Assembly (NCBI GenBank): GCA_038848185.1
Contig: JAWCNV010000006.1
Location: forward strand, 16,315 to 80,314
DNA from: Thermoproteota archaeon
GTDB lineage: Archaea > Thermoproteota > EX4484-205 > JAAOZP01
Direction of reading: 5' to 3'
DNA: 64,000 nt
Shown: piece after piece, positions 3,054 through 48,835 of the stretch
Numbering within the stretch: the stretch's first letter is position 1
How the letters are laid out: every line of letters starts with the position of its first letter
The notes under the pieces: generated by a model
Seen by the model: only the letters and a program-made list of their open reading frames with translations
The model's database searches: none
Told to the model about the DNA's origin: nothing
Position numbers and translations under genes: made by a program

Positions 3054-4433
3054 ATGCTGCGTAACCGTGAGATTGAGGAGGTTCATGGGGCTGCGCTGCA
3101 GGTTTTGGAGGAGGTTGGGGTGATGTTTGAAAACGGGGAGGCGCTTCAGATTCTGAAGTCTAATGGGGCTGAGGTGAGGGGGAGTGTTGCACATATTCCT
3201 GAGGAGCTGGCGAAGGAGTGTTTGAAGCAGGTTCCCTCCTCCATTAACCTCTATGATCTGGATGGAAGGTTAAGCTGCAGGCTTGGGGGTGACGAGGTTT
3301 ACTTCAACCCGGGTTCAACGGCGAGCTGGTATATCGATGAGAATGGGGAGAGGAGGAGACCTTTTTACAGGGACATGGTGAGGTTTGCACAAGTAGTTGA
3401 GAAGCTGCCTTTTCTGCAGATGCAGAGCACGGCCCTGGTTGTTCAGGATGTTGAGGAGGATTTGCGCGCTGTCTCTAGGCTTCAGGCTGTTCTCGAGGCC
3501 TCTAGGAAGCCGGTTGTCACAGGTGTTTTCAGGGAGGATGATTTTGATAAGATGAAAAATGTTCTTTCGAAGTATACGGATTTGAGCGGGAAGCCGGTTG
3601 CGATATTTGATGCTTGCCCAAACAGCCCTTTACGCTGGAGCAGGCATTTAACCCATAGTGTAATTGAGTGCGCGAGGAACAATATTCCGGCGACGATTAT
3701 TTCGATGCCGATGCCCTTCATCTGTTCTCCCCCGACTCTCGCCGGGAGCCTTGTTCAGCATCATGCAGAGAACCTTAGTGGAATCGTGCTGGCTGAGTGC
3801 GCTGAGCCGGGGGCTAAGGTTATCTACGGGGGCTCTCCCTCCCTACAGGCTAAAAACCCTTTAATGAGCCACCCCGGGGTCTTGAAGCTTATTCTCGCCT
3901 ACAATCAGGTTGGGAAATACTTTGGGATTCCGACCCACGCCTACCTGGGTGTGTCTGATTCCTCAATGGTTGACGAGAGGGCTTTCGTCGAGTCAGCCTA
4001 CTGTTTGGCTAAGGGGAAGGAGGCGGGGGTAAACGTGGTTTCCGGACCCGGGATGCTGGAGGGTGAGAATACTCAAAGCATCCTGAAACTGGTGATTGAC
4101 GGTTTTATTTGCGAAAACGCTTTCACCCGAGGATCATCATTGATAAACAGGGTTCTAGAGGTAATAGATTCTGAGGATGTTTATTCTTACCGCTCCTTTC
4201 TGGAGAAGGAGATTAAGGTGAGCGAGGATACGCTTTGCCTCGGTCTGATTAAGGAGGTTGGCCCTGGCGGTAGCTATCTTAAGCCTAGTTGCGTGAGGGA
4301 GTATCATAGGGTTTTCAGCAGCGAGTTCACAATGCCCTCAGCCAGAGATTTTCAGCAGGAACCTTTGAAAGAACTGTTCGAGGAGGCAAAGAGGAAATCA
4401 GCCTCGTTTCTTAAAGCCTTTGGAAAACTTTGA
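3054..4433 (+). CDS. Trimethylamine methyltransferase (MttB) superfamily protein, non-pyrrolysine type
   Basis: 459 aa. The N-terminus 'REIEEVHGAALQVLEEVGVMFENGEALQILKSNGAEV' matches the MttB family N-terminal signature. Length fits a TIM-barrel MttB. No in-frame amber codon. Confidence 0.65.
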   Translation: MLRNREIEEVHGAALQVLEEVGVMFENGEALQILKSNGAEVRGSVAHIPEELAKECLKQVPSSINLYDLDGRLSCRLGGDEVYFNPGSTASWYIDENGERRRPFYRDMVRFAQVVEKLPFLQMQSTALVVQDVEEDLRAVSRLQAVLEASRKPVVTGVFREDDFDKMKNVLSKYTDLSGKPVAIFDACPNSPLRWSRHLTHSVIECARNNIPATIISMPMPFICSPPTLAGSLVQHHAENLSGIVLAECAEPGAKVIYGGSPSLQAKNPLMSHPGVLKLILAYNQVGKYFGIPTHAYLGVSDSSMVDERAFVESAYCLAKGKEAGVNVVSGPGMLEGENTQSILKLVIDGFICENAFTRGSSLINRVLEVIDSEDVYSYRSFLEKEIKVSEDTLCLGLIKEVGPGGSYLKPSCVREYHRVFSSEFTMPSARDFQQEPLKELFEEAKRKSASFLKAFGKL

Positions 4434-17165: not shown

Positions 17166-17838
17166 GAAGACTTACATGCTGCTTGCAATAGCCAAGCTGA
17201 TCGAGGAGGGGAGAACACCTATTTCAACAAGAGAGCTCTCTAAGGAAATAGGCATGTCGCACCAGTCAGCCGCAAGGTATCTTAAGGAGCTTGAGAAAGA
17301 GAAGCTTATAGAGACCATGATGTCCCCGAAAGGCCGTATAGTAAAACTGTCGAACAAAGGGCTTGACCAGATTAAGCTTCACGCAGGCTCATTGCTATCC
17401 ATGGTTAACAAGGTTTACGTTACCCACGTGTTCACTGGAAAAGTTTTCACAGGGCTGGGTGAGGGAGCATACTATATTTCAAAAAAGCCGTATCTCGATC
17501 AGTTTCAATCCAAGCTGGGTTACCAACCCTACCCGGGCACCCTGAACCTGAGGATAGAGCAGTACATGGATCAGCTTCTACTGGCTGAGAGAATGTCTAA
17601 GCCACCTATATTTATACAGGGCTTCACGAACCATGAGAGGGCTTTTGGAGACGGGTACTGTTACCCTGTAATCGTGAACGGCATCTACGAGGGAGCAATA
17701 GTTAAAGCAATAAGAACAGTCTACGATAATTCTGTGGTTGAAATAATCTCTCCCCATAACCTTAGGAAGGAGCTTAACCTTAAGGATGGGGACAAGGTTA
17801 CGTTTGTCTTTAAGACTGCCGCGATAAGAGAAGAATAG
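17149..17838 (+). CDS. ribK: HTH domain fused to CTP-dependent riboflavin kinase (archaeal RibK)
   Basis: N-terminal winged helix ('ISTRELSKEIGMSHQSAARYLKELE'). C-terminal 'PYPGTLNLRI' and 'YEGAIV' match archaeal CTP-dependent riboflavin kinases. Confidence 0.8.
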   Translation: MLKEYKKTYMLLAIAKLIEEGRTPISTRELSKEIGMSHQSAARYLKELEKEKLIETMMSPKGRIVKLSNKGLDQIKLHAGSLLSMVNKVYVTHVFTGKVFTGLGEGAYYISKKPYLDQFQSKLGYQPYPGTLNLRIEQYMDQLLLAERMSKPPIFIQGFTNHERAFGDGYCYPVIVNGIYEGAIVKAIRTVYDNSVVEIISPHNLRKELNLKDGDKVTFVFKTAAIREE

Positions 17839-17862
17839 AAGCCCTAGGGAACATCCTTATCT

Positions 17863-18324
17863 TTAAACATCTCTAATCCGCTCTATTATCTTACTGGTAC
17901 TCATGTTGAAAAACTTCCTCATCCTGATAGTCTTAACCCTGAGCTCCAGTTCACCTATAACCCTACGGGTCTTCTCCATGATAGCAGTCTGATCGTAGCC
18001 GAACACAATAATATCAGGCCTAATCCTCCTCAGAAACCATGCAATGTTTCTCTCGATGTTTCCACGCCTACCGATGTAAACAGCGTCAACAGGCTTAAGT
18101 CGGGAGAGCATGAGAGCCCTGTCCCTAGCCCTGAACATTGGACTCCTACCCTTACTCTTCCTGACGACACTGTCACAAGCAACAATAACTATCAGCCTAC
18201 CGTTTCTACCAGCAAGACGCTTAGCCTCCTCAAGAAACCTGATGTGGCCGGGATGAATAATGTCAAACACTCCAGTAGTAAGAACAACCCTGCCTCTTCC
18301 ACTCATACCGGATTCTCCACACAC
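17863..18324 (-). CDS. ribL: FAD synthase (archaeal RibL, cytidylyltransferase-fold)
   Basis: 'VVLTTGVFDIIHPGHIRFLEEAK' is the (H/T)xGH nucleotidyltransferase motif. 153 aa. Convergent with ribK. Confidence 0.8.
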   Translation of the reverse strand: MCGESGMSGRGRVVLTTGVFDIIHPGHIRFLEEAKRLAGRNGRLIVIVACDSVVRKSKGRSPMFRARDRALMLSRLKPVDAVYIGRRGNIERNIAWFLRRIRPDIIVFGYDQTAIMEKTRRVIGELELRVKTIRMRKFFNMSTSKIIERIRDV

Positions 18325-18380
18325 CGCTATAAAAGCATCGGTTAAAAGTTTTTAAAATCCTAGGTAAAACATTAAGCCGA

Positions 18381-18470
18381 GGGCCCGTAGCTCAGCATGG
18401 CAGAGCAGCAGCCTCTTAAACAAGAATGGAGTCAGCTGAGGGTCGAGGGTTCAAATCCCTCCGGGCCCGC
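18381..18470 (+). tRNA. tRNA-Lys (anticodon CUU) with ~14-nt intron in the anticodon loop
   Basis: Acceptor GGGCCCG/CGGGCCC. D-arm GCTC...GAGC. Anticodon stem GCAGC with loop CTCTTAA. Extra 14-15 nt before the 3' stem half. T-arm GAGGGTTCAAATCCCTC. 90 nt. No encoded CCA. Confidence 0.75.
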
Positions 18471-18597
18471 TAATCTGGCAGTCATGCGTTTAAGCTCCGC
18501 ATCTTAGATCCATGTTACCATGTTTAATTTTATAGGTGAGCAGTTAATCTGGTTAGGAGAAGGAGTAAACTGCAGATACGGATGGAAGCCTGTATGT

Positions 18598-20958
18598 TTA
18601 TCTTCGCACTTGGATGATTATGCTAGCAGTAGGAACCCCGTCTGTGGCAGCGGTGAGAACGATTTCTCCCGGTTCACCGTTGGCACGGACAACTACCATT
18701 GCACGCCCCTCATGAACTCTACGCTGATTCCCAACATACATTTCTTCAGAAACTGGGTTGCCAGTGCCCACGGCCACTATAGAACCAACACCATAGGCAG
18801 TGAAATAAATATTGTTGGTTGCGTTATGGCAAATATTTCCTGAAGAATCCACCAGCTCCACGGTAACATAAGATAGGTCTCCGAATTCTGCCTTTAACAC
18901 ATTGCGGTCAGGTTTCAGACGAATATTTGCAGGTTTCCCTGCTGTTCTCAACACAGTGCGGGAGGCTTCAACACCCTTCTCGTATCCGACTGCCACTAGT
19001 TCACCAGGCTCGTAGACAATCCTGAAGGAAGCAATATACCGGTTGGGCTTCCCCGCTGGTTTTCGACCTAGTGACCTACCGTTGAGTAAGAGTTCAACCT
19101 CGCTGTTGAGGCTGTATACGTCTACCATTATCGGCTTACCCTCGTAACCCGGCCAAGTCCATGAGGATACCACATCAGGCCAGCCCCAGAGTGAGATATG
19201 AGGTTTCTTATTGTAATTCTCTGGTTTATGAACCGCGATATATGGGGCTTTAGATATCCCCCAAACGCAGTCACGGTAGTATGATTGAGGCCTTTTGAAG
19301 CCACAAATATCAATGTCTCCGCAGAATGCTTGGTGCCAAGGATATGATCCTAGAAATGGAAACTCGCCTTCTTCATAACTGACCCGTCCAATACCGGCTT
19401 CACCAAGATAGTCTAGAGCAGTCCAGACGAAATCACCGATGACATAGGGTAGTTTTTCAACCGCTTCCCAGTAGTCGTAAACCATCTGAGGGAAGCTCTC
19501 CGTACAGCATATTATACGATTGGGAAAGGTTTTTCCATCGCTATCGTAGCGATGCAGCATATAGTTGTAGCCTACCACATCCAGAGGCTCTGTGAACTTG
19601 GAAGAATGCTCAATCCAGAGTTCGTCAGGAATTCTCCGGTCAGAAGATTCGACCAAAGAGTAGAGAGAAGATTCGGTCAGAGCACTTGTAATAGCCCTCG
19701 TATTATCTAGGCTACGGATAAATTCCGCCAATCTGCGTGAATAAGCATAGCCCTCGGAGAATCCGGTTAATTCCGGGATTTCATTGCCAATCGACCACAT
19801 GATGATGCATGGATGATTACGGTCGCGAAGAATCATGGAAGCCAGGTCTCTCTGCCACCACTCCTCGAAATACATACTGTAATCATTAGGGTTTTTAGAC
19901 TCACGCCAGCAATCGAAGATCTCGTCTATTACCAGCATGCCCAGCTTGTCGCAAGCATCTAGAAAAGCCGGGGAGGGCGGGTTGTGGGCGCACCTTACTG
20001 CATTGTAACCATTAGCTTTAAGCAGCTCAACCTTGCGCTCCTCAGCCCGGTCATATGACGCTGCTCCAAGCAGCCCACAGTCATGGTGTACACATCCTCC
20101 CCTAAGCTTAATGGGTACACCGTTCAATTGGAAGCCTTTTTTCACGTCGAAAGATATGGAGCGGATTCCCACATTAGTCTTAGTCCTGTCAACAACTGTG
20201 CCATCCCGTATAACTTCACTTCTCAGAATATAAAGGAACGGATTCTCCAAGGACCAGAGTTTTGGAGAAGACACCTTGAGGCCCTGAGCAGCCTCAGCTG
20301 AACCGCCGGCAGGAGCCTTCAGTTCAACTTCTCCTTTTGCAACTTCTAGACCTGAGGCTGTCAGCAGCGTTGAACGGACAGTGACACTGGCTGCTGTGGG
20401 ACCAGTATTTTCAACAGTGGTCTTAACTGAAACAATAGAGGCGTCGGAGGAAACTTTTGGAGTCGTCACATAAACACCCCAAGGAGGAATGTAGATTTTC
20501 TCGCCGACCAGCAACCATACATGGCGGTAAATACCTGAGCCACTGTACCAACGGGTATTTGGGTGAGCACTATTATTCACAAAGACACGGATTTTATTAT
20601 CCCGACCATGAAGCAAATAAGGCGTCACATCGCAAAGGAAACTGGTGTAACCATAGGGGTGTCTGGCCACAAGATTGTTGTTGAAATGCACCGCAGCATT
20701 CATATATACGCCTTCAAACTCGAGAAGGATTTTCTTATCCTTCCAATCCTCAGGGACGAATAGTGTTTTTTCATAAGTCGCCATGCCTCCTGGAAAAAAG
20801 CCGTTAGCAGCACCCGCAGGTGCATTTGGATCACGTTTTTGAATAATGCTGAAATCATGAGGTAAATCCACGATTATTCTTTCAGCCTGCTTTGCGAACG
20901 AGCCTTGGGCTACGCCAAAATTGAAAAACCATTGCCTATCCAGATTATATCGCTTCAT
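18598..20958 (-). CDS. Glycoside hydrolase family 2 (beta-galactosidase/beta-glucuronidase-like)
   Basis: 786 aa. N-terminal sugar-binding domain. 'GIYRHVWLL' and the 'WSIGNE' acid/base region are typical of GH2. Confidence 0.8.
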   Translation of the reverse strand: MKRYNLDRQWFFNFGVAQGSFAKQAERIIVDLPHDFSIIQKRDPNAPAGAANGFFPGGMATYEKTLFVPEDWKDKKILLEFEGVYMNAAVHFNNNLVARHPYGYTSFLCDVTPYLLHGRDNKIRVFVNNSAHPNTRWYSGSGIYRHVWLLVGEKIYIPPWGVYVTTPKVSSDASIVSVKTTVENTGPTAASVTVRSTLLTASGLEVAKGEVELKAPAGGSAEAAQGLKVSSPKLWSLENPFLYILRSEVIRDGTVVDRTKTNVGIRSISFDVKKGFQLNGVPIKLRGGCVHHDCGLLGAASYDRAEERKVELLKANGYNAVRCAHNPPSPAFLDACDKLGMLVIDEIFDCWRESKNPNDYSMYFEEWWQRDLASMILRDRNHPCIIMWSIGNEIPELTGFSEGYAYSRRLAEFIRSLDNTRAITSALTESSLYSLVESSDRRIPDELWIEHSSKFTEPLDVVGYNYMLHRYDSDGKTFPNRIICCTESFPQMVYDYWEAVEKLPYVIGDFVWTALDYLGEAGIGRVSYEEGEFPFLGSYPWHQAFCGDIDICGFKRPQSYYRDCVWGISKAPYIAVHKPENYNKKPHISLWGWPDVVSSWTWPGYEGKPIMVDVYSLNSEVELLLNGRSLGRKPAGKPNRYIASFRIVYEPGELVAVGYEKGVEASRTVLRTAGKPANIRLKPDRNVLKAEFGDLSYVTVELVDSSGNICHNATNNIYFTAYGVGSIVAVGTGNPVSEEMYVGNQRRVHEGRAMVVVRANGEPGEIVLTAATDGVPTASIIIQVRR

Positions 20959-21309
20959 CAGTTAACAGCCTCCTATTCTGCAAGCCTTATTTTTATTTTT
21001 TACCTAATAAAATTCACCTTGTAGGCTTCCGCTTACCCTTTATAAGGATGTGATAAACCCGGTTTACGCTTATAGGCTTGTACCCTACTGAACATAGCTT
21101 CCTTGACATACCACGCGCAGCCTTAACATCACCCTGTTGAATCACACATCGCTTACAGCTTAACGACATAATCCGTATATAATTGCTTACCATTCTTTGG
21201 TTATTTTCTTAGCCTGCTTACGATACGTTTGTGGCTTAGACGAAGAAACCCGAAGCAAGATGTATGCCGATAGTAGAGCAGCAGAATTTTAAATGATGAG
21301 GAACCTGCA

Positions 21310-22698
21310 TCATCCGAATAGGGTTGTTATGCTTTCCGGCGGAACGGCCACATCTAGCAGGTTATTAGATACTGTTATATCGCCAATATAAGCACAGTTT
21401 TCAGATTTTGATGTACGGTACTGTTTGAATAACAGGGGTGAAACGTTTTTCAGATTTATTTTCATGTTGATAGTATCTTGACTCTCGTTTATGATAATGA
21501 TCGTCACATGATTATCAGCCTCATTAAGATATGCAGAGACCAGTATTTTCTGAATATTGGATGCAGCATATATTCTTCTCGATCCTGGAGTGATGAACCC
21601 AGAATATTGTTTTACAGCATAGAATGTCGGATTAACCCTATAGCTATTGTCACTAGGGTTTACGCTAATCAAACCGCCTTTCATGTACCAGAATAAGCCC
21701 CATACAAAGTATGCAGAGGCGTTTTCAACAGTTAGCACATTATGTATATGGTGAGCTGTAGCAAGCGCCTCCTTAAACGTTCCGATATTAGCGTCTTCCG
21801 AACAGCTGTATTCTGTCTGCCATACCGGTCTTTTGAACTGAGCACCGTATCCTGCAATAGTTTCCATCTGAATGGTCTCCTCATCCGGGTTGAAGAAGCT
21901 GACGTCATAAAGATGGTGAGCAAAAACCTCCACGTATTGAGCAGCCTCCGCATCATACATTATAAGAGGTATATATCTTACAGCGCCGGAGCAACCTGCA
22001 GCTTCGGGAACCATTATTTTCGTTGATAAACCCTCAGCCCTAAACTTAGCACCCACGATCTTGATAAGGTCCCTTAGTTGCTCAGGGGTATATGTACATG
22101 TTTCCCACTTATCGGTTGAAAAATCAGGTTCATTCTGCAGGCTTATCCAGCCTATATCTATACCAAAGCGATTTTTATACCCTATTATGTAGGCAGCTAG
22201 AAACTCTGCGAATTCCTCGTACATTTCAGGAAGAAGATAACCTCCTCCTTTCTCCTCACCCGTGTTCTTCATCCATCTGGGTGGACTCCACACAGAAGCC
22301 ATGAATTTCGTAACCCCCCTTTCCTTAGCTTGTTGTGCATTCCAAATCTGCCTATCACTCGCTATGCTGAAATGGAATGCGTCCCAATTAAAGTTATTAG
22401 GGTCAGCATCATCGTTAACCCTTTCAACATCAGTCCACACCCTTAACCGGTAGATGCTTATACCAAGGTCGGAGAACAATAGGTCAAGAACCTTTGTTCT
22501 ACTAGGCTCTTTCAAGAGCATTACTGATGATTCATAATAAGCTCCGGATCCCCCGAAACCTTCAATCTCTTGATATTTTATCGAGCCATCAACTGTCACC
22601 ACATTCTCTTTAGATACTACCCCAGTTCCTAAGAAAAAGATAATTGCAGCAGAGGTTGCTGACAACAGGATTACGATTAAAGATTTCTTCAAAGCCAT
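21310..22698 (-). CDS. Glycoside hydrolase family 30 (xylanase/glucosylceramidase-like), secreted
   Basis: 462 aa. N-terminal signal/TM segment. 'GFGGSGAY', 'LQNEPD' (acid/base Glu) and 'WQTEYS' (nucleophile Glu) match the GH30 pattern. Confidence 0.75.
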   Translation of the reverse strand: MALKKSLIVILLSATSAAIIFFLGTGVVSKENVVTVDGSIKYQEIEGFGGSGAYYESSVMLLKEPSRTKVLDLLFSDLGISIYRLRVWTDVERVNDDADPNNFNWDAFHFSIASDRQIWNAQQAKERGVTKFMASVWSPPRWMKNTGEEKGGGYLLPEMYEEFAEFLAAYIIGYKNRFGIDIGWISLQNEPDFSTDKWETCTYTPEQLRDLIKIVGAKFRAEGLSTKIMVPEAAGCSGAVRYIPLIMYDAEAAQYVEVFAHHLYDVSFFNPDEETIQMETIAGYGAQFKRPVWQTEYSCSEDANIGTFKEALATAHHIHNVLTVENASAYFVWGLFWYMKGGLISVNPSDNSYRVNPTFYAVKQYSGFITPGSRRIYAASNIQKILVSAYLNEADNHVTIIIINESQDTINMKINLKNVSPLLFKQYRTSKSENCAYIGDITVSNNLLDVAVPPESITTLFG

Positions 22699-22818
22699 AT
22701 TTGTGGTCCTTCTAAGGAAAATAAATCTTTTCTTTTTACTTATTCTTGACTAATACGCTCATTCATAAACACAGAACTTATCATGAGTGTAACAAGTTTT
22801 ATTCATCTCGCAGAGAAC

Positions 22819-22828
22819 TTTTATATAA
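22819..22828 (+). promoter_or_regulatory. Archaeal TATA box (TTTATATAA) for the GH10 gene; leaderless or near-leaderless transcript expected
   Basis: 'ttttatataa' lies about 23 nt upstream of the ATG at 22851, in the divergent GH30/GH10 intergenic region. Confidence 0.5.
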
Positions 22829-22850
22829 AAGTTTTGGATACTAATGCAGG

Positions 22851-23987
22851 TTGAATAGGAAAATGATAGGTATAGTTGTAGCAACATCCATACTAGTGCT
22901 TTGCATAGTAGGTTTTGCGGTCTGGCAGAAACCCGGAGAAACAACAGATAATGTTAACCCACAGGACACTATAAACTCCAATGGGGAAATGCTTGAAAAC
23001 CATACTCTGCGACAGTTAGCAGATCAGTGTAACATAATGATCGGAACATGTGTAAGCTATAATGCTTTGAAGCGTGACAGTGTTTACAGGAATATCCTGG
23101 CTCAAGAGTTTAACATAGTTACGCCAGAAAACGAGTTGAAATTTGAACCTGTGCACCCGGCTCCTACACGCTACGTTTTTCAGCAGGCAGATGAAATCAT
23201 TTCTTTTGCAGAAGCTAACGGTATGAAAGTTAGGGGTCATACACTTGTCTGGCATAATCAGCTTCCTCAATGGATAACAAAGGGAGAATATACGAAGGAG
23301 GAGTGGGTTGAAATATTGAGGGAACACATACATACGGTTGTCGAAAGATACCGTGGAAGAATATATGCTTGGGATGTTGTGAACGAGGCTTTTAGCGATG
23401 ATGGTAAGCTTAGGGAGACTGTTTGGCTAAAAAACATCGGTCCTGAATATATCGAGCTGGCCTTCAGGTGGGCGCATGAAGCTGATCCTGATGCACTCTT
23501 ATTCTATAATGATTATGGCATAGAGGGGGTTAATGAGAAGTCTAACGCTGTCTACAACTTCATCAGGGAGCTTCTGAATAAGGGTGTTCCAATACACGGC
23601 GTAGGTCTTCAGATGCATATTGGTTTGGAGTGGTATCCTGATCCATCGAGCATTGCTGAAAACATTAGGAGGTTCAGGGAACTCGGCCTCAAGGTTGAAA
23701 TAACGGAGATGGATGTTAGGATTAAGCTTCCTGCTTCGAATGATGATCTTGCCAGGCAAGCAGAAATATACAAGAATATTTTGAAGACGTATCTAGATAG
23801 CGATAGCCCGGATGCGTTCATACTGTGGGGTTTTACAGATAAATATTCTTGGGTATCTTACTCCTTCTCCGGATACGGATCAGCCGTGATCTTCGACGAG
23901 TCCTATGAGCCTAAGCCAGCCTACTACGCCTTGAAAGAAGCCATGTGGGAGAAGATTCAATCGGGCAATACGGGTGGAACAGGATAA
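22851..23987 (+). CDS. Glycoside hydrolase family 10 endo-1,4-beta-xylanase, membrane-anchored/secreted
   Basis: 378 aa. N-terminal TM segment. 'TPENELKFE', 'GHTLVWHNQLPQW', 'WDVVNEAF' (acid/base) and 'ITEMDV' (nucleophile) are canonical GH10 blocks. Confidence 0.9.
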   Translation: MNRKMIGIVVATSILVLCIVGFAVWQKPGETTDNVNPQDTINSNGEMLENHTLRQLADQCNIMIGTCVSYNALKRDSVYRNILAQEFNIVTPENELKFEPVHPAPTRYVFQQADEIISFAEANGMKVRGHTLVWHNQLPQWITKGEYTKEEWVEILREHIHTVVERYRGRIYAWDVVNEAFSDDGKLRETVWLKNIGPEYIELAFRWAHEADPDALLFYNDYGIEGVNEKSNAVYNFIRELLNKGVPIHGVGLQMHIGLEWYPDPSSIAENIRRFRELGLKVEITEMDVRIKLPASNDDLARQAEIYKNILKTYLDSDSPDAFILWGFTDKYSWVSYSFSGYGSAVIFDESYEPKPAYYALKEAMWEKIQSGNTGGTG

Positions 23988-24118
23988 GACTTATTTAAGC
24001 ACTTGATAAAGCACGATATTTTTAGAGCCATTTACTGTAGGAGTTAAGTGGACGAACTGTTCTTATTGTGGTTTTTAACCTGTGATTAGTATTTTAAGAG
24101 AAAAAAAGAAGGGGATTT

Positions 24119-24466
24119 TTAGATTAGCATAAACACTCCAATTCCGATTAGAGCCAGTATTATGCCTATGATTATGAAGATTATTACCGCAAGAATAGCT
24201 ATGGCAAAAGCCTGTATCCATCCGCAGTCAAAGAAGTGCTTTATCAACGCCAGCCAAACTATAAACATAACCAGAGCCGCAACCAAGCCGCTAAGGAAAA
24301 CACCAACTATTACACCTAGGACTACTCCGAGAACAACAATCCAGATCGCATCTGTGAATTTAGCCTTGCCTTTGCCTGCGATCAGCCTTCCAGCAATCCA
24401 CAATACTGGAGCAACTATTATGACATTTACTATGACCCTTATCAAAAATGCTGTTATATCTATCAT
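24119..24466 (-). CDS. Small integral membrane protein (3-4 TM helices)
   Basis: 115 aa, almost entirely hydrophobic helices. No other motif. Confidence 0.4.
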   Translation of the reverse strand: MIDITAFLIRVIVNVIIVAPVLWIAGRLIAGKGKAKFTDAIWIVVLGVVLGVIVGVFLSGLVAALVMFIVWLALIKHFFDCGWIQAFAIAILAVIIFIIIGIILALIGIGVFMLI

Positions 24467-24666
24467 GTCTTATCCTCCTTTTCACAATATTGATATTGTC
24501 CGCTAGATTTAAAGTTTTATTAGCCTAAAGCAGCTCCACTAATGGAATCTGCATTTTAATAAGAATTTTTTAAATAAATATTTCACGGAGAGACCCCTAA
24601 AACATCCTGTCAAAGATAAGAAGATAACACCAATAAACAAAAACATTTTAATGCATACTGAAAATT

Positions 24667-24753
24667 CGTCGAGGGCGGGATTTGAACCCGCACGGCCCGT
24701 GTGGGCCACGAGCTTAGCAGGCTCGCGCCTTAACCAGGTTTGGCTACCTCGAC
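24667..24753 (-). tRNA. tRNA-Ser (anticodon GCU), long variable arm
   Basis: Reverse complement folds with acceptor GTCGAGG/CCTCGAC, anticodon stem CGAGC with loop CTGCTAA, variable arm GGCCC-ACAC-GGGCC, T-arm GCGGGTTCAAATCCCGC. 87 nt. Confidence 0.85.
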
Positions 24754-24922
24754 ATGATTCCAACTAGTGTGAGTATACGGCTAGATAAAAATTTATCCGT
24801 TTGCCGAGCGTTTCAAATTTGAATAAGGATAGAATAGGGAGAAATATCCTTTTAAAATGCTCTTCTTTTTGACATTATGTTCGTTTAATCCTTTAATACT
24901 TAGTAGGTAGTTTGAATCATGT

Positions 24923-27900
24923 ATGGAGAAAAGAAAGGTTGTTAAGAGGGATGGGAGGATTGTTGATTTCGACCCTGTTAGGATTAGGAATGCTGTTATG
25001 AAGGCTATGCTTAGTGTAAAGCAGTATGACGAGGAGACTCTGGAGAAAGTTGTCAGCTACGTTTTAGGCTTTTTAAACGAGAGGTATGAGCAGGGTGTGA
25101 CCCCACATGTTGAGGACATACAGGACTTGGTGGAGTTTACGCTTGTGAAGTTTGACCTCTACGATGTTGCGAAAGCGTATATTCTTTACAGGAAGGAAAG
25201 GGAGAGAATAAGGGAGGAGAAGAAGGCGCTTCTCCAGAAGGATTTCATAGATGAGGTTGACAAGGAGTTTTCAGTCAACGCGATCAGGCTGATGGCGAGC
25301 CGTTACCTGCTTAAGGATGAGGAGGGGAAGCTTGCGGAAACGCCGAAGCAAATGTTTCAACGGGTTGCTATGGCAATTGTGATACCGGATATACTTCATG
25401 ACCCAAAGGTATTTCTTAAGGACGGAGGTTTACCAGTTTCCCCACGTGAAGAGTTTAACGCTGAATCTTACGCTAACAGGTTTGGCCTCGGAAAGAACGG
25501 TGACGGCTATACTGTTACTTGGAACAGTCATCATCTGGAGCGTATGAAGACGCTTTACGACGAGCTTAATTCACATGGTGAAATGAAGGTTTCTTGGAGC
25601 GATTTCCTGAGGATGCTGGGTTCAGGAGAATTCGAGAATTACTACAATGATTTCAAAGAGTATTATGATCTCATGGTTTCTAAAAGGTTCATGCCGAATT
25701 CACCGACGTTGTTCAACGCTGGAACAAGGCTCGGCCAACTCTCCGCGTGCTTCGTGCTCGACATAGAGGACAATATTGAGTCAATCATGAATGCGGCGAC
25801 TCAGGCAGCAATTATTTTCAAATCCGGTGGCGGAGTGGGAATAAACTATTCTAAGCTGAGGCCTGCCGGGGACATTGTGTCCAGCACTTCAGGAGTGGCA
25901 AGCGGCCCAGTCTCCTTCATGAGGATAATAGATACTGTTACTGATGTGGTGAAGCAAGGAGGTAAGAGGAGAGGGGCGAACATGGGGATTCTCGAGGTTA
26001 ATCACCCTGATATAGAGACGTTCATAACGGCGAAGTCTGAACGAGGAAGGCTTGAAAACTTCAACATATCTGTAATTGTCGGAGAAGATTTCTGGGATTA
26101 CCTTGATAAGGATGCTCCATATCCTCTTGTGAACCCTAGGGACGGAAGAACCTGGAAGACTGTTCAAGCTAAAGAAGTTCTCCGTAAGATGAGCGAGATG
26201 GCTTGGAGGACTGGCGACCCAGGTGTCATATTCCTCGACAACATTAATAGGAGGAACATGCTAGCGAAGCATAAGGGACCCATAAGATCAACCAACCCAT
26301 GCGTCTCCGGTGACACGAGGATTCTTACTCCTGATGGATGGATTAGGGCTGACGAGCTGTTTCATAAGGCTAGGCTTTCTGGTCAAGTTAAGGCTGTAGC
26401 AATCGATGAAGACCTGTTAGGTGATGGAGGTGAGCCACAAGCTTACAGGACGAAGCTAGTAACTATAGAAGGAGAAGAAGTAGTATACAGAACGGTTCAT
26501 GGAGAGGAATTGAATCTTCCCGTTCCTAGGGAAGCAGAGGCTTGGGTCTGGCATGTGGGTAAGAAGCCGGGTTTAGTGGTGAGGACAGAGGAAGGGTATG
26601 AATTGACTGTTACTTACGATCACAAGTTACTGACTCAAGAAGGGTGGAAAAAGGCCAAGGATCTTGCACCAGGAGATAAAGTATTGGCCAGCAGGCTTCA
26701 TCCATGGTTCCTAGAGTATGTTTACAAGGGGAGCTACAATCTTGATGAGGATGTATCGTTCGTATTAGGGTGGCTTGTTGGAGACGGCTCATTCAACAAA
26801 CATTACATTGCTTGGTTTTTCAACGAGGACGATAAAGCAGCCGAGGAATGCATAAGAAGAGGGATAGAGAAGATTGGAGGTAACCCATTATCCCACACTT
26901 ATGTTATAAGTAAGAGCGAGCATAAGATACAGTATAATAAGGACTCCACTGTATACAAGAATATGATGAATCTCATGGGTTCCTTGATGGAGAAGAGTAG
27001 GAATAGAAGATTTCCAGAGGTCATTTGGAAGCTAAGCCCCAGATCTTTAGCATTCTTTCTCAAGGGGCTCTTTACTGCTGACGGGTATGTAGATAACGAT
27101 AGGGCGGTGAGGCTGACGAGTGCCAGCTTACAAATACTTAAGGAGGCTCAACTACTTCTAACAATCTTTGGCATAGCATCCAGAATCTATGAGAGACCAT
27201 ATGAAGGAGAATTCCACTATGTTACCAAGGATGGTGAAGAAAGGAGTTACACGGCTTCTAGTTACTACGAGTTAGTGATAAACGGGTATAGTAGGAGGAT
27301 ATTTAAAGAACTTATAGGTTTTGAAAATATAAGTAAGCTTGAGAAACTTTCCCTAAAAAAGACTAAAAGAGATTCTTTACTAGTGACCGTGTCCTCCCTC
27401 GAAGATGTAGGGCGGGTAGATTTTTACGATTTTACAGTTCCAGCTTATCATAAATACATAGGAAACGGTTTTATAAACCACAATTGCGGTGAGGAACCAT
27501 TATACCCTTACGAATCCTGTAACCTTGGCTCGATAAACCTGTATGCCTTCGTAAAAAGGAATGGGAAAGAAACCTATTTCGATTGGGAGGAGTATTGTAA
27601 CACGATTAGGATTGCCCTGAGGTTTCTGGATAATGTGATAGACGTGAACAGGTTTCCAATACCTGAGATAGAGCGTGAAACTAAACAAACTAGAAAGGTG
27701 GGCTTAGGAGTCATGGGACTGGCAGACATGCTTTTCGCCCTTAGAATACCCTATAATAGTGAGGAGGGCTTTAAGATGATGAACATGGTAGCTGAACACT
27801 TAACCTTCTACGCCATCAGAGAGTCCTGCAGGCTTTCTAAGGAGCGGGGCCCATTCCCCCTATACCCTGACTCGTCCTACCCGGATGGCGAGATGCCTGT

Positions 27901-28726
27901 TGAAGGCTTTTACCATAAGGAGTGGCAGACACTTCCCTGGCAGGAGCTCCAGCAGGAGGTAAAAAGGTTCGGAGTAAGGAATGCTGAAGTAACAACTATC
28001 GCGCCAACAGGCTCAATCTCGATGCTGGCAGACGTTTCCTCCGGTATAGAGCCTCAGTTCGCCCTCATATATGAGAAGAGGGTTAGCATGGGAACATTCT
28101 ACTATGTTGACGCAGAGTTTGAGAAGACTCTTAATGAGAACGGGCTTTACGAGGAGAAGATGCTTAAACTGATTTCAGATAACGGCGGGTCGCTAGTAGG
28201 GCTTGACCCTATTCCAAGGGAATTAGCTGATGTTTTCCTAGTTGCCTACGACATACCTTGGTGGGACCATGTTAGGGCACAGGCAGAGTTTACGAAGTGG
28301 ATCTGTGCCGCGGTGAGCAAGACGATAAATATGCCTAACTGGGTTACTGTTGAAGATGTTGAGAAGGCCTTTATGCTGGCGCATGCTATGGGGGTTAAAG
28401 GCGTAACGATCTACCGGGATGGGTCTCTTCCTACGCAAGTTCTTGTTACACCGTCCTCTAAACTCGGGAGATACGTGAAGACCTTCAACAACTCGACTAT
28501 TAAGATGGCGGAGTCTCTAGGAATAGAGATAAAGGTATATGCGGGGGAAATTACAAATCCTCCTTCCGGAAAGATGATGCCGGAGAAGCCTGTTCTGATT
28601 CTTGAAAGAAACACTGCTCCAAGCAGCTACACGGAGTGTCCGAATTGCGGCAGTAAGCGTCTTACTAGGGAGGGGGGGTGTCTTCACTGTCTCGACTGCG
28701 GGTGGAGCATATGTCCTGTGGCTTAG
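24923..28726 (+). CDS. nrdJ: Ribonucleoside-diphosphate reductase, class II adenosylcobalamin-dependent (NrdJ), intein-containing precursor
   Basis: N-terminal ATP-cone ('VVKRDGRIVDFDPVRIRNAV'). Class II RNR core. Active-site 'STNP|C...HN|CGEEPL' split by a 395-aa insertion. C-terminal Cys4 zinc ribbon 'CPNCG...CLHCLDCG'. 1267 aa including intein. Confidence 0.9.
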   Translation: MEKRKVVKRDGRIVDFDPVRIRNAVMKAMLSVKQYDEETLEKVVSYVLGFLNERYEQGVTPHVEDIQDLVEFTLVKFDLYDVAKAYILYRKERERIREEKKALLQKDFIDEVDKEFSVNAIRLMASRYLLKDEEGKLAETPKQMFQRVAMAIVIPDILHDPKVFLKDGGLPVSPREEFNAESYANRFGLGKNGDGYTVTWNSHHLERMKTLYDELNSHGEMKVSWSDFLRMLGSGEFENYYNDFKEYYDLMVSKRFMPNSPTLFNAGTRLGQLSACFVLDIEDNIESIMNAATQAAIIFKSGGGVGINYSKLRPAGDIVSSTSGVASGPVSFMRIIDTVTDVVKQGGKRRGANMGILEVNHPDIETFITAKSERGRLENFNISVIVGEDFWDYLDKDAPYPLVNPRDGRTWKTVQAKEVLRKMSEMAWRTGDPGVIFLDNINRRNMLAKHKGPIRSTNPCVSGDTRILTPDGWIRADELFHKARLSGQVKAVAIDEDLLGDGGEPQAYRTKLVTIEGEEVVYRTVHGEELNLPVPREAEAWVWHVGKKPGLVVRTEEGYELTVTYDHKLLTQEGWKKAKDLAPGDKVLASRLHPWFLEYVYKGSYNLDEDVSFVLGWLVGDGSFNKHYIAWFFNEDDKAAEECIRRGIEKIGGNPLSHTYVISKSEHKIQYNKDSTVYKNMMNLMGSLMEKSRNRRFPEVIWKLSPRSLAFFLKGLFTADGYVDNDRAVRLTSASLQILKEAQLLLTIFGIASRIYERPYEGEFHYVTKDGEERSYTASSYYELVINGYSRRIFKELIGFENISKLEKLSLKKTKRDSLLVTVSSLEDVGRVDFYDFTVPAYHKYIGNGFINHNCGEEPLYPYESCNLGSINLYAFVKRNGKETYFDWEEYCNTIRIALRFLDNVIDVNRFPIPEIERETKQTRKVGLGVMGLADMLFALRIPYNSEEGFKMMNMVAEHLTFYAIRESCRLSKERGPFPLYPDSSYPDGEMPVEGFYHKEWQTLPWQELQQEVKRFGVRNAEVTTIAPTGSISMLADVSSGIEPQFALIYEKRVSMGTFYYVDAEFEKTLNENGLYEEKMLKLISDNGGSLVGLDPIPRELADVFLVAYDIPWWDHVRAQAEFTKWICAAVSKTINMPNWVTVEDVEKAFMLAHAMGVKGVTIYRDGSLPTQVLVTPSSKLGRYVKTFNNSTIKMAESLGIEIKVYAGEITNPPSGKMMPEKPVLILERNTAPSSYTECPNCGSKRLTREGGCLHCLDCGWSICPVA
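26300..27484 (+). mobile_element. Intein with LAGLIDADG homing-endonuclease domain inside nrdJ
   Basis: Begins with Cys ('CVSGDTRILTPDGW', block A). Ends 'FINHN' followed by extein Cys. Two LAGLIDADG motifs ('VLGWLVGDGSF' and 'FLKGLFTADGYV'). In-frame 1185 nt. Confidence 0.9.
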
Positions 28727-38112: not shown

Positions 38113-38559
38113 ATGCCCCGGAAGCTTGCGAAAATATCCCAGTATAACATTGGGGAGAAGGAGCTTCAGGCTTTCCTAGGCCCATTGGAAGCAAGCATAA
38201 TAGAGATCGTGTGGGGTTCTGAGAGTCCTCTTACAGTTAGAGATGTTTATGAGAGGCTTAAGCGGAAGAAGAGGATTGCCTACACCACTGTTATGACTAC
38301 GATGGATAGGCTTTACTGCAAGGGGTTGCTTGACAGACGCGTTGAAAAAGGGAGGGGCGGAGTATTCTATGTTTACTGGTCAAGGTTTGAAAAAAATAGT
38401 TTCAAGAAGTCGGCTGTTCAAGAAGTTTTGAATAGTCTGGTTGAAAACTTTGGCGAGATAGTTGCAAGCTACCTAGTTGAAAGAGTATCTTCAGACGAGC
38501 AGGAGCGTAAGAGTTTGAAGGAGAGGCTTGAGAAAGCTTTGAAGAAGAAGGAGGGTTGA
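38113..38559 (+). CDS. BlaI/MecI/CopY-family (penicillinase repressor-type) winged-helix transcriptional repressor
   Basis: 148 aa. 'LGPLEASIIEIVWGSESPLTVRDVYERL...AYTTVMTTMDRLYCKGLL' matches the Penicillinase_R HTH domain. C-terminal coiled coil. Confidence 0.7.
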   Translation: MPRKLAKISQYNIGEKELQAFLGPLEASIIEIVWGSESPLTVRDVYERLKRKKRIAYTTVMTTMDRLYCKGLLDRRVEKGRGGVFYVYWSRFEKNSFKKSAVQEVLNSLVENFGEIVASYLVERVSSDEQERKSLKERLEKALKKKEG

Positions 38560-48733: not shown

Positions 48734-48835
48734 TGCGGGAGGTGGGATTTGAACCCACGAACCCCTTCGGGACTGGATCTTAAGTCCAGCGCCTCGAGTC
48801 CATAGTCCCGTTTGACCAGGCTTGGCTACTCCCGC
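48734..48835 (-). tRNA. tRNA-Leu (anticodon UAA) with ~15-nt intron at a non-canonical position (D-arm/anticodon-stem junction)
   Basis: Reverse complement has acceptor GCGGGAG/CTCCCGC, D-arm GCC-AAGCCTGGTCAAA, perfect anticodon hairpin CTGGA-CTTAAGA-TCCAG nested inside GGGAC...GTCCC, long variable arm CCCGAAGGGG, T-arm GTGGGTTCAAATCCCAC. 102 nt vs ~87 expected. Confidence 0.75.

Follow-up and report, generated by a model that had tools for sequence, protein, structure and literature searches.

The prediction that Brockarchaeota degrade xylan dates from 2021, when hot-spring members of this archaeal phylum were reported to encode extracellular xylan-degrading glycoside hydrolases (GHs) together with a XylA/XylB pentose route (De Anda et al. 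2021, PMC8065059). That study gives counts of carbohydrate-active enzymes only; GH10, GH30 and GH2 have no occurrence in its main text, which also contains nothing on the present locus, its synteny or its erosion in relatives. Here we analyse a 64-kb stretch of a metagenome-assembled genome (MAG; contig JAWCNV010000006.1, positions 16 315 to 80 314), in the following called the window, in which genes for a GH2, a GH30 and a GH10 enzyme lie between a tRNA-Lys and a tRNA-Ser gene. Several MAGs of the 2021 study (DRTY-6.bins.80, QC4_43, GD2_1 and JZZ.bins.4) encode aCPSF1 proteins 87–88% identical to that of the window; the published account and the locus described here thus concern the same lineage and the same claim of extracellular xylan-active GHs linked to XylA/XylB (PMC8065059).

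With respect to gene arrangement, the closest known systems are archaeal islands linked to tRNA genes, e.g. those arising by SSV-type integration. The GH locus resembles such islands in that accessory-looking genes are found between two tRNAs, in that their content varies among relatives, and in that synteny breaks down right of tRNA-Lys in one group of relatives (clade B, see below). In contrast to them, it has no integrase, no duplicated attachment (att) site and no foreign codon usage, and its tRNAs and core gene are fixed across a deep divergence. The original prediction for this stretch had interpreted the block as a laterally acquired hemicellulose-utilisation module. Our analysis retains the hemicellulose part, as the cluster encodes a GH10 xylanase homologue and a GH30 from the xylan-active part of its family, but argues against a recent acquisition: the locus is probably an old, resident and vertically inherited possession of a Brockarchaeota-lineage archaeon, present at least since the split from relatives with about 80% identity in housekeeping proteins, and not a recent island.

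Conservation of the locus among relatives

A scan with the flanking aCPSF1, using one genome per species, returned 15 archaeal loci from species-level MAGs with 84–89% identity to the window protein. Four of these MAGs are named Candidatus Brockarchaeota (87–89%); the remaining ones are labelled Thermoproteota, Nitrososphaerota or Thaumarchaeota, and several of the isolate names correspond to Brockarchaeota sampling sites. On account of the identity to the named Brockarchaeota MAGs we assign the host, as judged from this protein, to the Brockarchaeota lineage and not to the classical crenarchaeotes, for which it had been taken. The argument that xylanases are uncommon in Crenarchaeota is moot, because hot-spring Brockarchaeota had earlier been reported to carry extracellular xylan-degrading GHs (PMC8065059).

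For the comparison, homologous loci in related genomes or assemblies are given L-numbers (L005 is an independent Logan assembly of SRR8369165, L009 is GCA_052743655, and L010, L019 and L031 all belong to GCA_038883435.1). Upstream of the cluster, the order proteasome, aCPSF1, LSm, L37e, 212-aa protein, endonuclease V, riboflavin kinase and CTP-transferase is kept in 15/15 species. When six of the flanking proteins were concatenated (1672 columns), the neighbour-joining tree separated three deep groups, each about 78–82% identical to the window: the window itself, clade A (L019, L015, L002/L017/L018, L006/L013) and clade B (eight species). After the CTP-transferase gene, the members of clade A as well as L029/L030 continue with tRNA-Lys(CTT) and then, L019 excepted, with GH10, a small riboflavin-kinase-like gene, a 115-aa membrane protein, tRNA-Ser(GCT) and RNR. 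Orthologues of the tRNA-Lys hold the same place in L002, L006, L013, L015, L017, L018, L019 and L029, and orthologues of the membrane protein (66–83% identity) do so in L002, L006, L013, L015, L017 and L029. The GH10 gene is found between tRNA-Lys(CTT) and tRNA-Ser(GCT)/RNR in L002-L004/L017, L006, L013, L015, L018 and L029, i.e. in at least six species-level relatives; in fact, it is present at the site in every relative that keeps the tRNA-Lys to RNR arrangement. Since GH10 occupies the same site in the window lineage and in clade A, it has been there since before the two separated.

The history of GH30 at the locus is documented by a pseudogene. In L029 (14670–15427), and at the same place in L030, pieces of a GH30 gene, corresponding to residues 33–134, 147–189, 359–417 and 426–462, follow one another in collinear order within the 1.07 kb that separate GH10 from tRNA-Lys (tblastn E 6e-25); they are interrupted by stop codons and frameshifts, lack the middle of the gene and lie divergent from GH10 as in the window; the source annotation reads them as two short hypothetical open reading frames (ORFs). 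In L019, tRNA-Lys is followed, about 75 nt away and at the contig end, by an intact GH30 on the minus strand. Because the pseudogene occupies the position of the window gene and L019 retains tRNA-Lys next to GH30, GH30 is ancestral at the locus, and its absence from other relatives reflects loss and not gain in the window. No significant GH30 remnants were found in the spacers of L002, L006, L013, L015 and L018. The divergent GH30(-)/GH10(+) pair is also present in L005, L009 and L010, and in L029 in its pseudogene form. Across loci, identities to the window are 63–66% for GH10 and 55–68% for GH30, and the two co-vary (64%/68% in L009; 59%/56% in L010).

Trees and searches agree with this picture, as all three proteins fall into archaeal clades. 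The top database matches of GH10 are all archaeal MAG proteins, and the window sequence lies in a clade made up of Brockarchaeota-type sequences only (100% bootstrap), which includes a paralogue group (member P0020 comes from the same MAG as L010 and L019). GH2 belongs to an archaeal clade with 100% bootstrap, within which the window, L005 and L029 group together at 76%. GH30 has about 35 archaeal clusters of homologues at 51–68% identity; bacterial proteins come only after an abrupt gap, at ≤35%. Synonymous divergence (Nei-Gojobori pS, window versus L029/L015) amounts to 0.56–0.61 for GH2, 0.75–0.89 for GH10 and 0.55–0.81 for housekeeping neighbours, all near saturation. The GH2 protein is 85–87% identical to the GH2 of the same locus in L015, L029 and L030, from which a recent transfer of this gene was suspected; the pS values do not support it. 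As they are near saturation and, although toward the lower limit, overlap those of the neighbours (0.52–0.81), the GH2 copies appear to have diverged about as long ago as the genomes. We conclude that GH2 is old in the locus and was either relocated or inserted twice.

Taken together, the ancestral layout probably comprised CTP-transferase, tRNA-Lys(CTT), GH30(-), GH10(+), the small membrane protein, tRNA-Ser(GCT) and RNR, with GH2 somewhere in the locus. All three enzymes persist in the window lineage; GH30 (with a pseudogene left in one case) and/or GH2 have disappeared from relatives. Archaeal clades, conserved synteny and largely unremarkable composition, the combination that the original prediction had itself named as speaking against lateral acquisition, are essentially what we find.

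Observations that weigh against an old resident locus

Several results nevertheless count against this interpretation. In the eight Brockarchaeota species of clade B synteny stops right after the CTP-transferase gene, unrelated genes come next and the locus is lacking; in view of these species the locus is not universal in the phylum. The GH30/GH10 pairs of L009 and L010 sit in other genomic contexts, which implies that the pair has been relocated on some occasions. The strictly syntenic GH10 sequences form a monophyletic group with a bootstrap of only 46%. GH2 does not keep one position: in the window and L005 its neighbours are tRNA-Lys and GH30, in L015, L029 and L030 the membrane protein and tRNA-Ser. 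A simple inversion was considered as the link between the layouts of the window and L029, and no path of one or two inversions was found when this was worked out by hand. The gene trees are neighbour-joining trees from p-distance-corrected matrices, unrooted or midpoint-rooted, and most database sequences in trees and searches carry no taxon label, while the labels of MAGs may be wrong. The last point concerns composition, for which the genes and same-size windows of the 64-kb window alone served as background (54 genes for per-gene values, 19 other long genes for per-gene dinucleotide deviation, δ*). The pooled δ* of the 6.4-kb block is 68 × 10^-3, compared to 39 ± 12.5 × 10^-3; this is within the top 3% of 6.4-kb windows and the most deviant value in the 64 kb, and GH2, GH30 and GH10 all show an AT excess and an AG/CT deficit. 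The pooled δ* is the sole signal that leans toward lateral acquisition.

Taken singly, the GH genes have δ* values of 63–74, within the range of 33–113 spanned by the 19 other long genes. The content of W, Y, F, N, D, S and T in the GH proteins is 0.33–0.36, compared to 0.287 ± 0.040 (1.1–1.9 standard deviations (sd) above average), and we tentatively attribute the dinucleotide deviation to an effect of amino acids typical for GH proteins. Depletion of K, E and R was considered as a source of the AG/CT deficit and was not borne out. The GH42 gene outside the cluster shows the same AG/CT deficit as the cluster GH genes.

Further observations were made in relatives with altered layouts. In L016 (clade B), a HerA/TraG-like ATPase gene and a TnpB gene (OrfB_IS605/Cas12f-like) at 17459–21892 lie no more than 6 kb from the synteny breakpoint. 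In L009 (5525–5616), a cassette of GH30, GH10 and the kinase-like gene lies some 70 nt away from another tRNA-Lys gene, which has the anticodon TTT and a 16-nt intron at an unusual position. The neighbourhood (TFIIE, Trm56, HD) is unrelated to that of the window, and the location of the cassette suggests rearrangement at tRNA-Lys genes. GCA_038883435.1 (L010, L019, L031) carries two GH30 genes, one near tRNA-Lys and one in a pyrimidine-biosynthesis neighbourhood, as well as at least two GH10 paralogues; either these are true paralogues or the bin contains more than one strain.

Alternative origins of the cluster

The alternative that survives best concerns the deep origin of the enzymes. According to it, an ancient inter-domain transfer brought bacterial GH10, GH2 and perhaps GH30 genes into thermophilic TACK archaea, where they diversified vertically, with some exchange between Brockarchaeota and Bathyarchaeia. 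We find it plausible and consider the arguments for and against it evenly balanced; such a transfer would long predate the locus and is compatible with its old residence. GH10 is 55–59% identical to sequences labelled bacterium, Abyssubacteria and Bacillota, and matches Thermotoga XynB with an E-value of 1e-111. GH2 is 55–62% identical over 100% of its length to proteins of Paenibacillus, Bacillota and Lachnospiraceae, far above the identity of housekeeping proteins between archaea and bacteria, and the archaeal GH2 sequences form a tight clade (100% bootstrap) inside a broad radiation that includes sequences with bacterial labels. The identity gradient of GH2 runs from 85% (Brockarchaeota) over 81% (Bathyarchaeia) to 55–62% (Bacillota/Paenibacillus), and the GH2 proteins of the window lineage and of MAGs labelled Bathyarchaeia are 80–81% identical. 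However, trees without an outgroup-based root are silent on direction, the labelling of the matches has the weaknesses mentioned above, and the gap of GH30 to bacteria (≤35%) fits a very old separation equally well.

A second possibility restricts the insertion to GH2. In the window lineage, the 2.8-kb segment with this gene would have been inserted beside the tRNA-Lys 3' end by archaeon-to-archaeon transfer or intragenomic transposition, in an event separate from the one behind the copy next to tRNA-Ser in L015/L029; GH30 and GH10 would be ancestral. Consistent with it, GH2 occupies different positions in the window/L005 and in L015/L029/L030 and adjoins a tRNA gene in both layouts. A 46-bp piece of 3' flank moves along with the gene: the blastn match between the window and L015 begins at 18552, 46 bp past the GH2 stop, despite the different neighbour of GH2 in L015. 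GH2 also separates the old GH30-downstream spacer from tRNA-Lys. In blastn, a 42-nt stretch at 21198–21239 matches the spacer between tRNA-Lys and GH10 in L006 with 85.7% identity over its full length, which marks it, by sequence, as old GH30-downstream DNA, and in L019 and L009 GH30 is only about 70 nt from tRNA-Lys. Moreover, GH2 is the most conserved protein of the locus (85–87%), with 81% identity to Bathyarchaeia copies. On the other hand, its pS is not clearly below the values of GCS2, CTP-transferase and the membrane protein (0.52–0.69). As pS is similar to that of these vertically inherited neighbours, any transfer would be about as old as the split of the lineages. The window groups with L029 in the GH2 tree (76%) as it does in the species tree, no repeats beyond chance matches flank the segment, and the composition of GH2 is typical of the genome. 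We therefore regard a separate insertion of GH2 as possible but doubtful, next to the old residence of the locus as a whole.

Far less room is left for a recent horizontal acquisition, i.e. a bacterial hemicellulase island integrated at tRNA-Lys or tRNA-Ser. At first sight, the block between two tRNA genes whose 3' ends both point toward it, the variable gene content among relatives, the pooled δ* and the low G+C content of two GH genes would fit this scenario. The GH genes had been described as AT-richer than their neighbours. This holds for GH30 (GC 0.420; GC at third codon positions, GC3, 0.410) and GH10 (GC 0.434; GC3 0.443), which are 1–1.5 sd below the window gene means (GC 0.462 ± 0.028, GC3 0.491 ± 0.054), but not for GH2 (GC 0.476); many genes at 29–56 kb are equally AT-rich, as are about half of all those to the right of the cluster, and the lowest GC3 of the window (0.375) belongs to GH42. 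The deviant synonymous codon preferences postulated before could not be confirmed, as the leave-one-out deviation of the three GH genes (0.24–0.30) is below the window mean (0.35). The 6.4-kb block is at the 40th percentile of same-size windows for GC and at the 19th percentile for tetranucleotide correlation; thus GC, GC3, codon usage and tetranucleotides are ordinary, and pooled δ* alone stands out.

The tRNA flanks likewise show no trace of integration. Searching the whole window with 30–32-mers and 19–20-mers of both tRNA 3' ends (≤3 mismatches), we found the genes themselves and one genuine tRNA-Arg only. A repeat scan of 17800–25000 gave 22 short two-copy families at chance level. Among them, a 24-nt match (79%) of the D/anticodon region of tRNA-Lys to 21270–21293 (family D3) was examined as a candidate att remnant and rejected, because it covers the 5' half of the tRNA only, has no continuation in the 3' half and is one of the 22 chance-level families. 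Between the tRNAs there is no integrase, recombinase or other mobility gene; the ORFs are those of GH2, GH30, GH10 and the 115-aa membrane protein. Together with the presence of both tRNAs and GH10 in relatives with about 80% housekeeping identity, the loss of GH30 seen in the L029 pseudogene, the synonymous sites as saturated as in neighbouring genes and the archaeal affiliation of the closest homologues, this largely refutes a recent acquisition already, and we consider it highly improbable.

That bacterial GH genes were mis-joined into an archaeal contig, a reading prompted by the origin of the sequence from a MAG, has next to no likelihood and is refuted for practical purposes: the order GH2, GH30, GH10, membrane protein, tRNA-Ser, RNR recurs in L005 with 92% nucleotide identity, the identical trio has consecutive accessions in 3 NCBI MAG assemblies, proteins identical to those of the window are found on the NCBI MAG contig JAWCPA010000001.1 (GCA_038870495.1, 218.6 kb), where the GH genes are flanked left and right by archaeal genes and accompanied by an intron-containing tRNA, and the same locus exists in many relatives.

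Predicted functions of the enzymes

The GH10 protein is clearly a homologue of endo-1,4-β-xylanases as judged from its sequence. It matches PF00331 with 362.8 bits (cut-off 22.1) over profile positions 2–310 of 311, and 131 GH10 chains of the PDB match at E ≤ 1e-40; the NCBI entry (MEM2940214.1) is named endo-1,4-beta-xylanase [Thermoproteota archaeon]. The best solved relatives are the Thermotoga enzymes XynB and TpXyl10B (PDB 1VBR and 3NIY; E 1e-111 and 2e-111 over residues 48–370). They share with the window protein the single GH10 domain and the WDVVNE and ITEMD blocks, located here at residues 174–179 (Glu179) and 284–288 (Glu286). It differs from them by its membership in the Brockarchaeota clade (100% bootstrap) and by an N-terminal hydrophobic anchor or signal (residues ~5–25) and a linker of ~25 residues in front of the catalytic domain (53–363). 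By homology, the enzyme would be a retaining endo-1,4-β-xylanase with Glu179 and Glu286 as the catalytic residues, cutting xylan to oligosaccharides.

The GH30 protein scores above the cut-offs of three profiles (PF02055, 50.9 with cut-off 23; PF14587, 56.3 with cut-off 27; PF17189, 25.2 with cut-off 22). Its AlphaFold model (pLDDT 92.9) consists of an N-terminal helix, a (β/α)8 barrel and a C-terminal β-sandwich, and each of the 31 best Foldseek matches is a xylan-active GH30 from subfamily 7, 8 or 10; the TM scores to GH30 structures are 0.72–0.83 (query-normalised). The catalytic blocks are QNEPD (188–192) and QTEYS (294–298), so that the catalytic blocks predicted for both GH30 and GH10 are indeed present. 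Alignment to AcXbh30A (QNEPN, MTEVS) and EcXynA indicates Glu190 and Glu296 as the catalytic pair, and N189, E190 and E296 are invariant in 44 homologues.

The closest characterised relative is AcXbh30A, a GH30-10 xylobiohydrolase (PDB 7N6H/7N6O; E 1e-51, 34% identity over 415 residues). Its structure 7N6O is also the best fold match to the model (TM 0.83/0.88), with both catalytic Glu residues aligned. The xylobiohydrolase clade is defined by at least 46% identity to AcXbh30A, and neighbouring clades at 34–44% include an endoxylanase without xylobiohydrolase activity (PMC8453022). With 34%, the window GH30 lies outside the GH30-10 xylobiohydrolase clade and in an archaeal-only clade; since this is the identity level of functionally different clades, the mode of action cannot be transferred from AcXbh30A. 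The GH30-8 glucuronoxylanases (EcXynA, 1NOF; BsXynC, 3KL0) have the fold and the catalytic pair in common with the window protein (E 6e-33, TM 0.74/0.88), and JGI labels homologues with the XynC KEGG name. However, the score against the NCBIfam XynC equivalog is 117.7, far below its cut-off of 650, and the protein does not qualify as a GH30-8 member. The WYIRR motif of EcXynA aligns to WYMKG in the window GH30, the two Arg being replaced by Lys and Gly; we take these Arg residues, in the β8-α8 loop, to be the glucuronate-carboxylate-binding motif of GH30-8. By sequence and model the protein is thus of a xylan-active type and would act as an endoxylanase or a xylobiohydrolase, with Glu190 and Glu296 as catalytic residues and without the GH30-8 Arg motif.

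The archaeal-only GH30 clade (51–68% identity within, ≤35% to bacteria, 34% to the nearest characterised enzyme) could represent an undescribed subfamily, co-inherited with GH10 as a divergent xylanolytic cassette in thermophilic TACK archaea and relocated by recombination at tRNA-Lys genes and not by an integrase. The latter is suggested by the fact that the tRNA-Lys gene next to the cassette has the anticodon CTT in most relatives but TTT in L009. We put this proposal forward as a speculation that we consider unlikely to hold.

Both GH30 and GH10 start with strongly hydrophobic segments (19-residue Kyte-Doolittle maxima of 2.37 and 2.80; in GH30 a helix of residues 2–23). A secreted GH30 and a membrane-anchored GH10 had been proposed; cleaved and retained segments are indistinguishable from sequence. 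Judging by homologues, both enzymes may be exported through these segments. They may further be transcribed divergently from a shared 150-nt promoter region in the 164-nt spacer between them, where TATA-like boxes were read by eye. Relatives of the window organism originate from hot springs, and the enzymes may be thermostable, as had been anticipated for the xylanases.

For GH2, Pfam detects the sugar-binding N domain (PF02837, 75.0), the Ig-like domain (PF00703, 63.9) and the TIM barrel (PF02836, 85.8), each above its threshold, as well as DUF4982 and GH2_C5, and no N-terminal hydrophobic segment is seen (Kyte-Doolittle maximum 0.43). The full-length protein matches 7RSK and 6B6L (E ~1e-196), which are uncharacterised; literature searches on these best structural relatives found no published function, and searches on 5T98 and 5T99 did not help to name the GH2 specificity either. 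The N-terminal half matches β-galactosidases (BgaD-type, 7CWD/4YPJ; E 1e-130) with the same five-domain architecture. GalA and GalB are the best NCBIfam matches, with scores of 584.2 and 556.8 that stay below the equivalog cut-off of 900. GH2 is probably a cytoplasmic, β-galactosidase-like enzyme.

In the pathway we propose, oligosaccharides released from xylan would be imported by a transporter encoded outside the locus. GH2 may then act as a cytoplasmic β-galactosidase-like exo-glycosidase on imported hemicellulose fragments, its link to xylan being putative, and xylose would feed into the XylA/XylB route reported for Brockarchaeota. The locus and its vicinity contain no transporter, regulator or xylose-catabolic gene, and the closest ABC transporters are more than 10 kb away and of other types; the cluster thus differs from polysaccharide-utilisation clusters, which are recognised by linked transporter and regulator genes.

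Map of the locus and neighbouring features

ORF, Pfam and RNA scans reproduce the predicted arrangement of GH2, GH30 and GH10 between the two tRNAs almost base for base (Table 1), and Pfam matches bear out the separate GH42-like gene. The tRNA-Lys was missed by plain ARAGORN and called Lys(CTT) in intron mode only. An Rfam E-value scan of 18300–25000 for hidden RNA genes in the spacers gave the two tRNAs alone. The neighbours of the cluster are housekeeping genes (FAD synthase-like CTP-transferase, riboflavin kinase, endonuclease V, RNR and DNA ligase).

Table 1. Features of the GH locus and related genes (window coordinates unless a locus is named).
Feature	Position	Strand	Evidence or remark
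tRNA-Lys(CTT)	18381-18470	+	Rfam RF00005, 54.6 bits; ARAGORN intron mode: 15-nt intron after position 39
Spacer between tRNA-Lys and GH2 stop	18471-18597		Last 46 bp (18552-18597) travel with GH2
GH2 glycosidase, 786 aa	18598-20958	-	Five GH2-type Pfam domains
GH2-GH30 spacer	20959-21309		No ORF ≥60 aa, no Rfam match
GH30, 462 aa	21310-22698	-	PF02055, PF14587, PF17189
Divergent GH30/GH10 intergenic region, 164 nt	22699-22862		AT-rich TATA-like elements ~20-35 nt before each start codon
GH10, 378 aa from TTG (374 aa from ATG at 22863)	22851-23987	+	PF00331
Small multi-pass membrane protein, 115 aa	24119-24466	-	Translation; no Pfam or NCBIfam match
tRNA-Ser(GCT), right border	24666-24754	-	ARAGORN and Rfam
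GH42-type β-galactosidase, 722 aa, outside cluster	44199-46367	+	PF02449, 150.3 bits; PF08532, 82.5 bits
Stand-alone riboflavin-kinase-like gene, relatives	L002 11112-11510; L006 12140-12532; L009 8430-8822; L029 12887-13282		

Directly 3' of GH10, every relative, including the rearranged L009, carries a stand-alone CTP-dependent riboflavin-kinase domain of about 130 aa, which is 34–39% identical to the kinase domain of the nearby HTH (helix-turn-helix)-riboflavin kinase gene. In the window and L005 this gene is absent and has left no remnant. The two border tRNAs vary as well. The tRNA-Lys(CTT) orthologue has a 15–16-nt intron after position 39 in the window and L015 (14900–14990), and is intron-less in L002 (9730–9804), L006, L013, L018, L019 and L029. 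Compared with all other relatives, the window and L005 have the tRNA-Ser(GCT) turned around together with its conserved AT-rich upstream box: L002 (12114–12200), L006, L013, L017 and L029 (9678–9766) encode the tRNA on the same strand as RNR, the window and L005 on the other one. Between the 5' end of tRNA-Ser and the RNR start codon lies a 15-nt inverted repeat (24752–24766/24908–24922). The RNR gene itself (24923–28726, +) is interrupted by an intein of roughly 400 aa that includes a LAGLIDADG endonuclease domain (Intein_splicing 542–854, LAGLIDADG_3 711–799). RNR orthologues with the intein are found in L002, L003, L017 and L029 (1266 aa) and orthologues without it in L006, L007, L013 and L018 (871 aa or two adjacent high-scoring segment pairs), so that the intein is polymorphic within the lineage.

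Elsewhere in the window, an MttB-family (trimethylamine methyltransferase-like) gene at 3054–4433 (+) fits the non-methanogenic methylotrophy proposed for Brockarchaeota. At 38113–39902 (+), a gene for a BlaI-like repressor (Penicillinase_R) is followed by one for a BlaR1-type M48/M56 membrane peptidase, a sensor/repressor pair that is better known from bacteria. An intron-containing tRNA at 48734–48835 (-) is detected by Rfam (55 bits) and called tRNA-His with anticodon ATG and a 26-nt intron by ARAGORN, an anticodon call that looks unreliable. The ORF that follows (48924–51344, -; 806 aa) does not match any Pfam family at E ≤ 1e-5.

Implications

The findings leave general ideas about archaeal biology and horizontal gene transfer unchanged. 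They provide a syntenically anchored locus for the degradation of xylan, a capacity known from Brockarchaeota genomes only through enzyme counts until now. The presence or absence of GHs among the relatives reflects loss, with one pseudogene caught in the process, and not recent import, which bears on niche differentiation in hot-spring archaea. Finally, the locus nominates three uncharacterised archaeal enzymes for expression. GH30 deserves most attention among them, as a member of an archaeal-only clade with a mode of action that is not predictable from known relatives.

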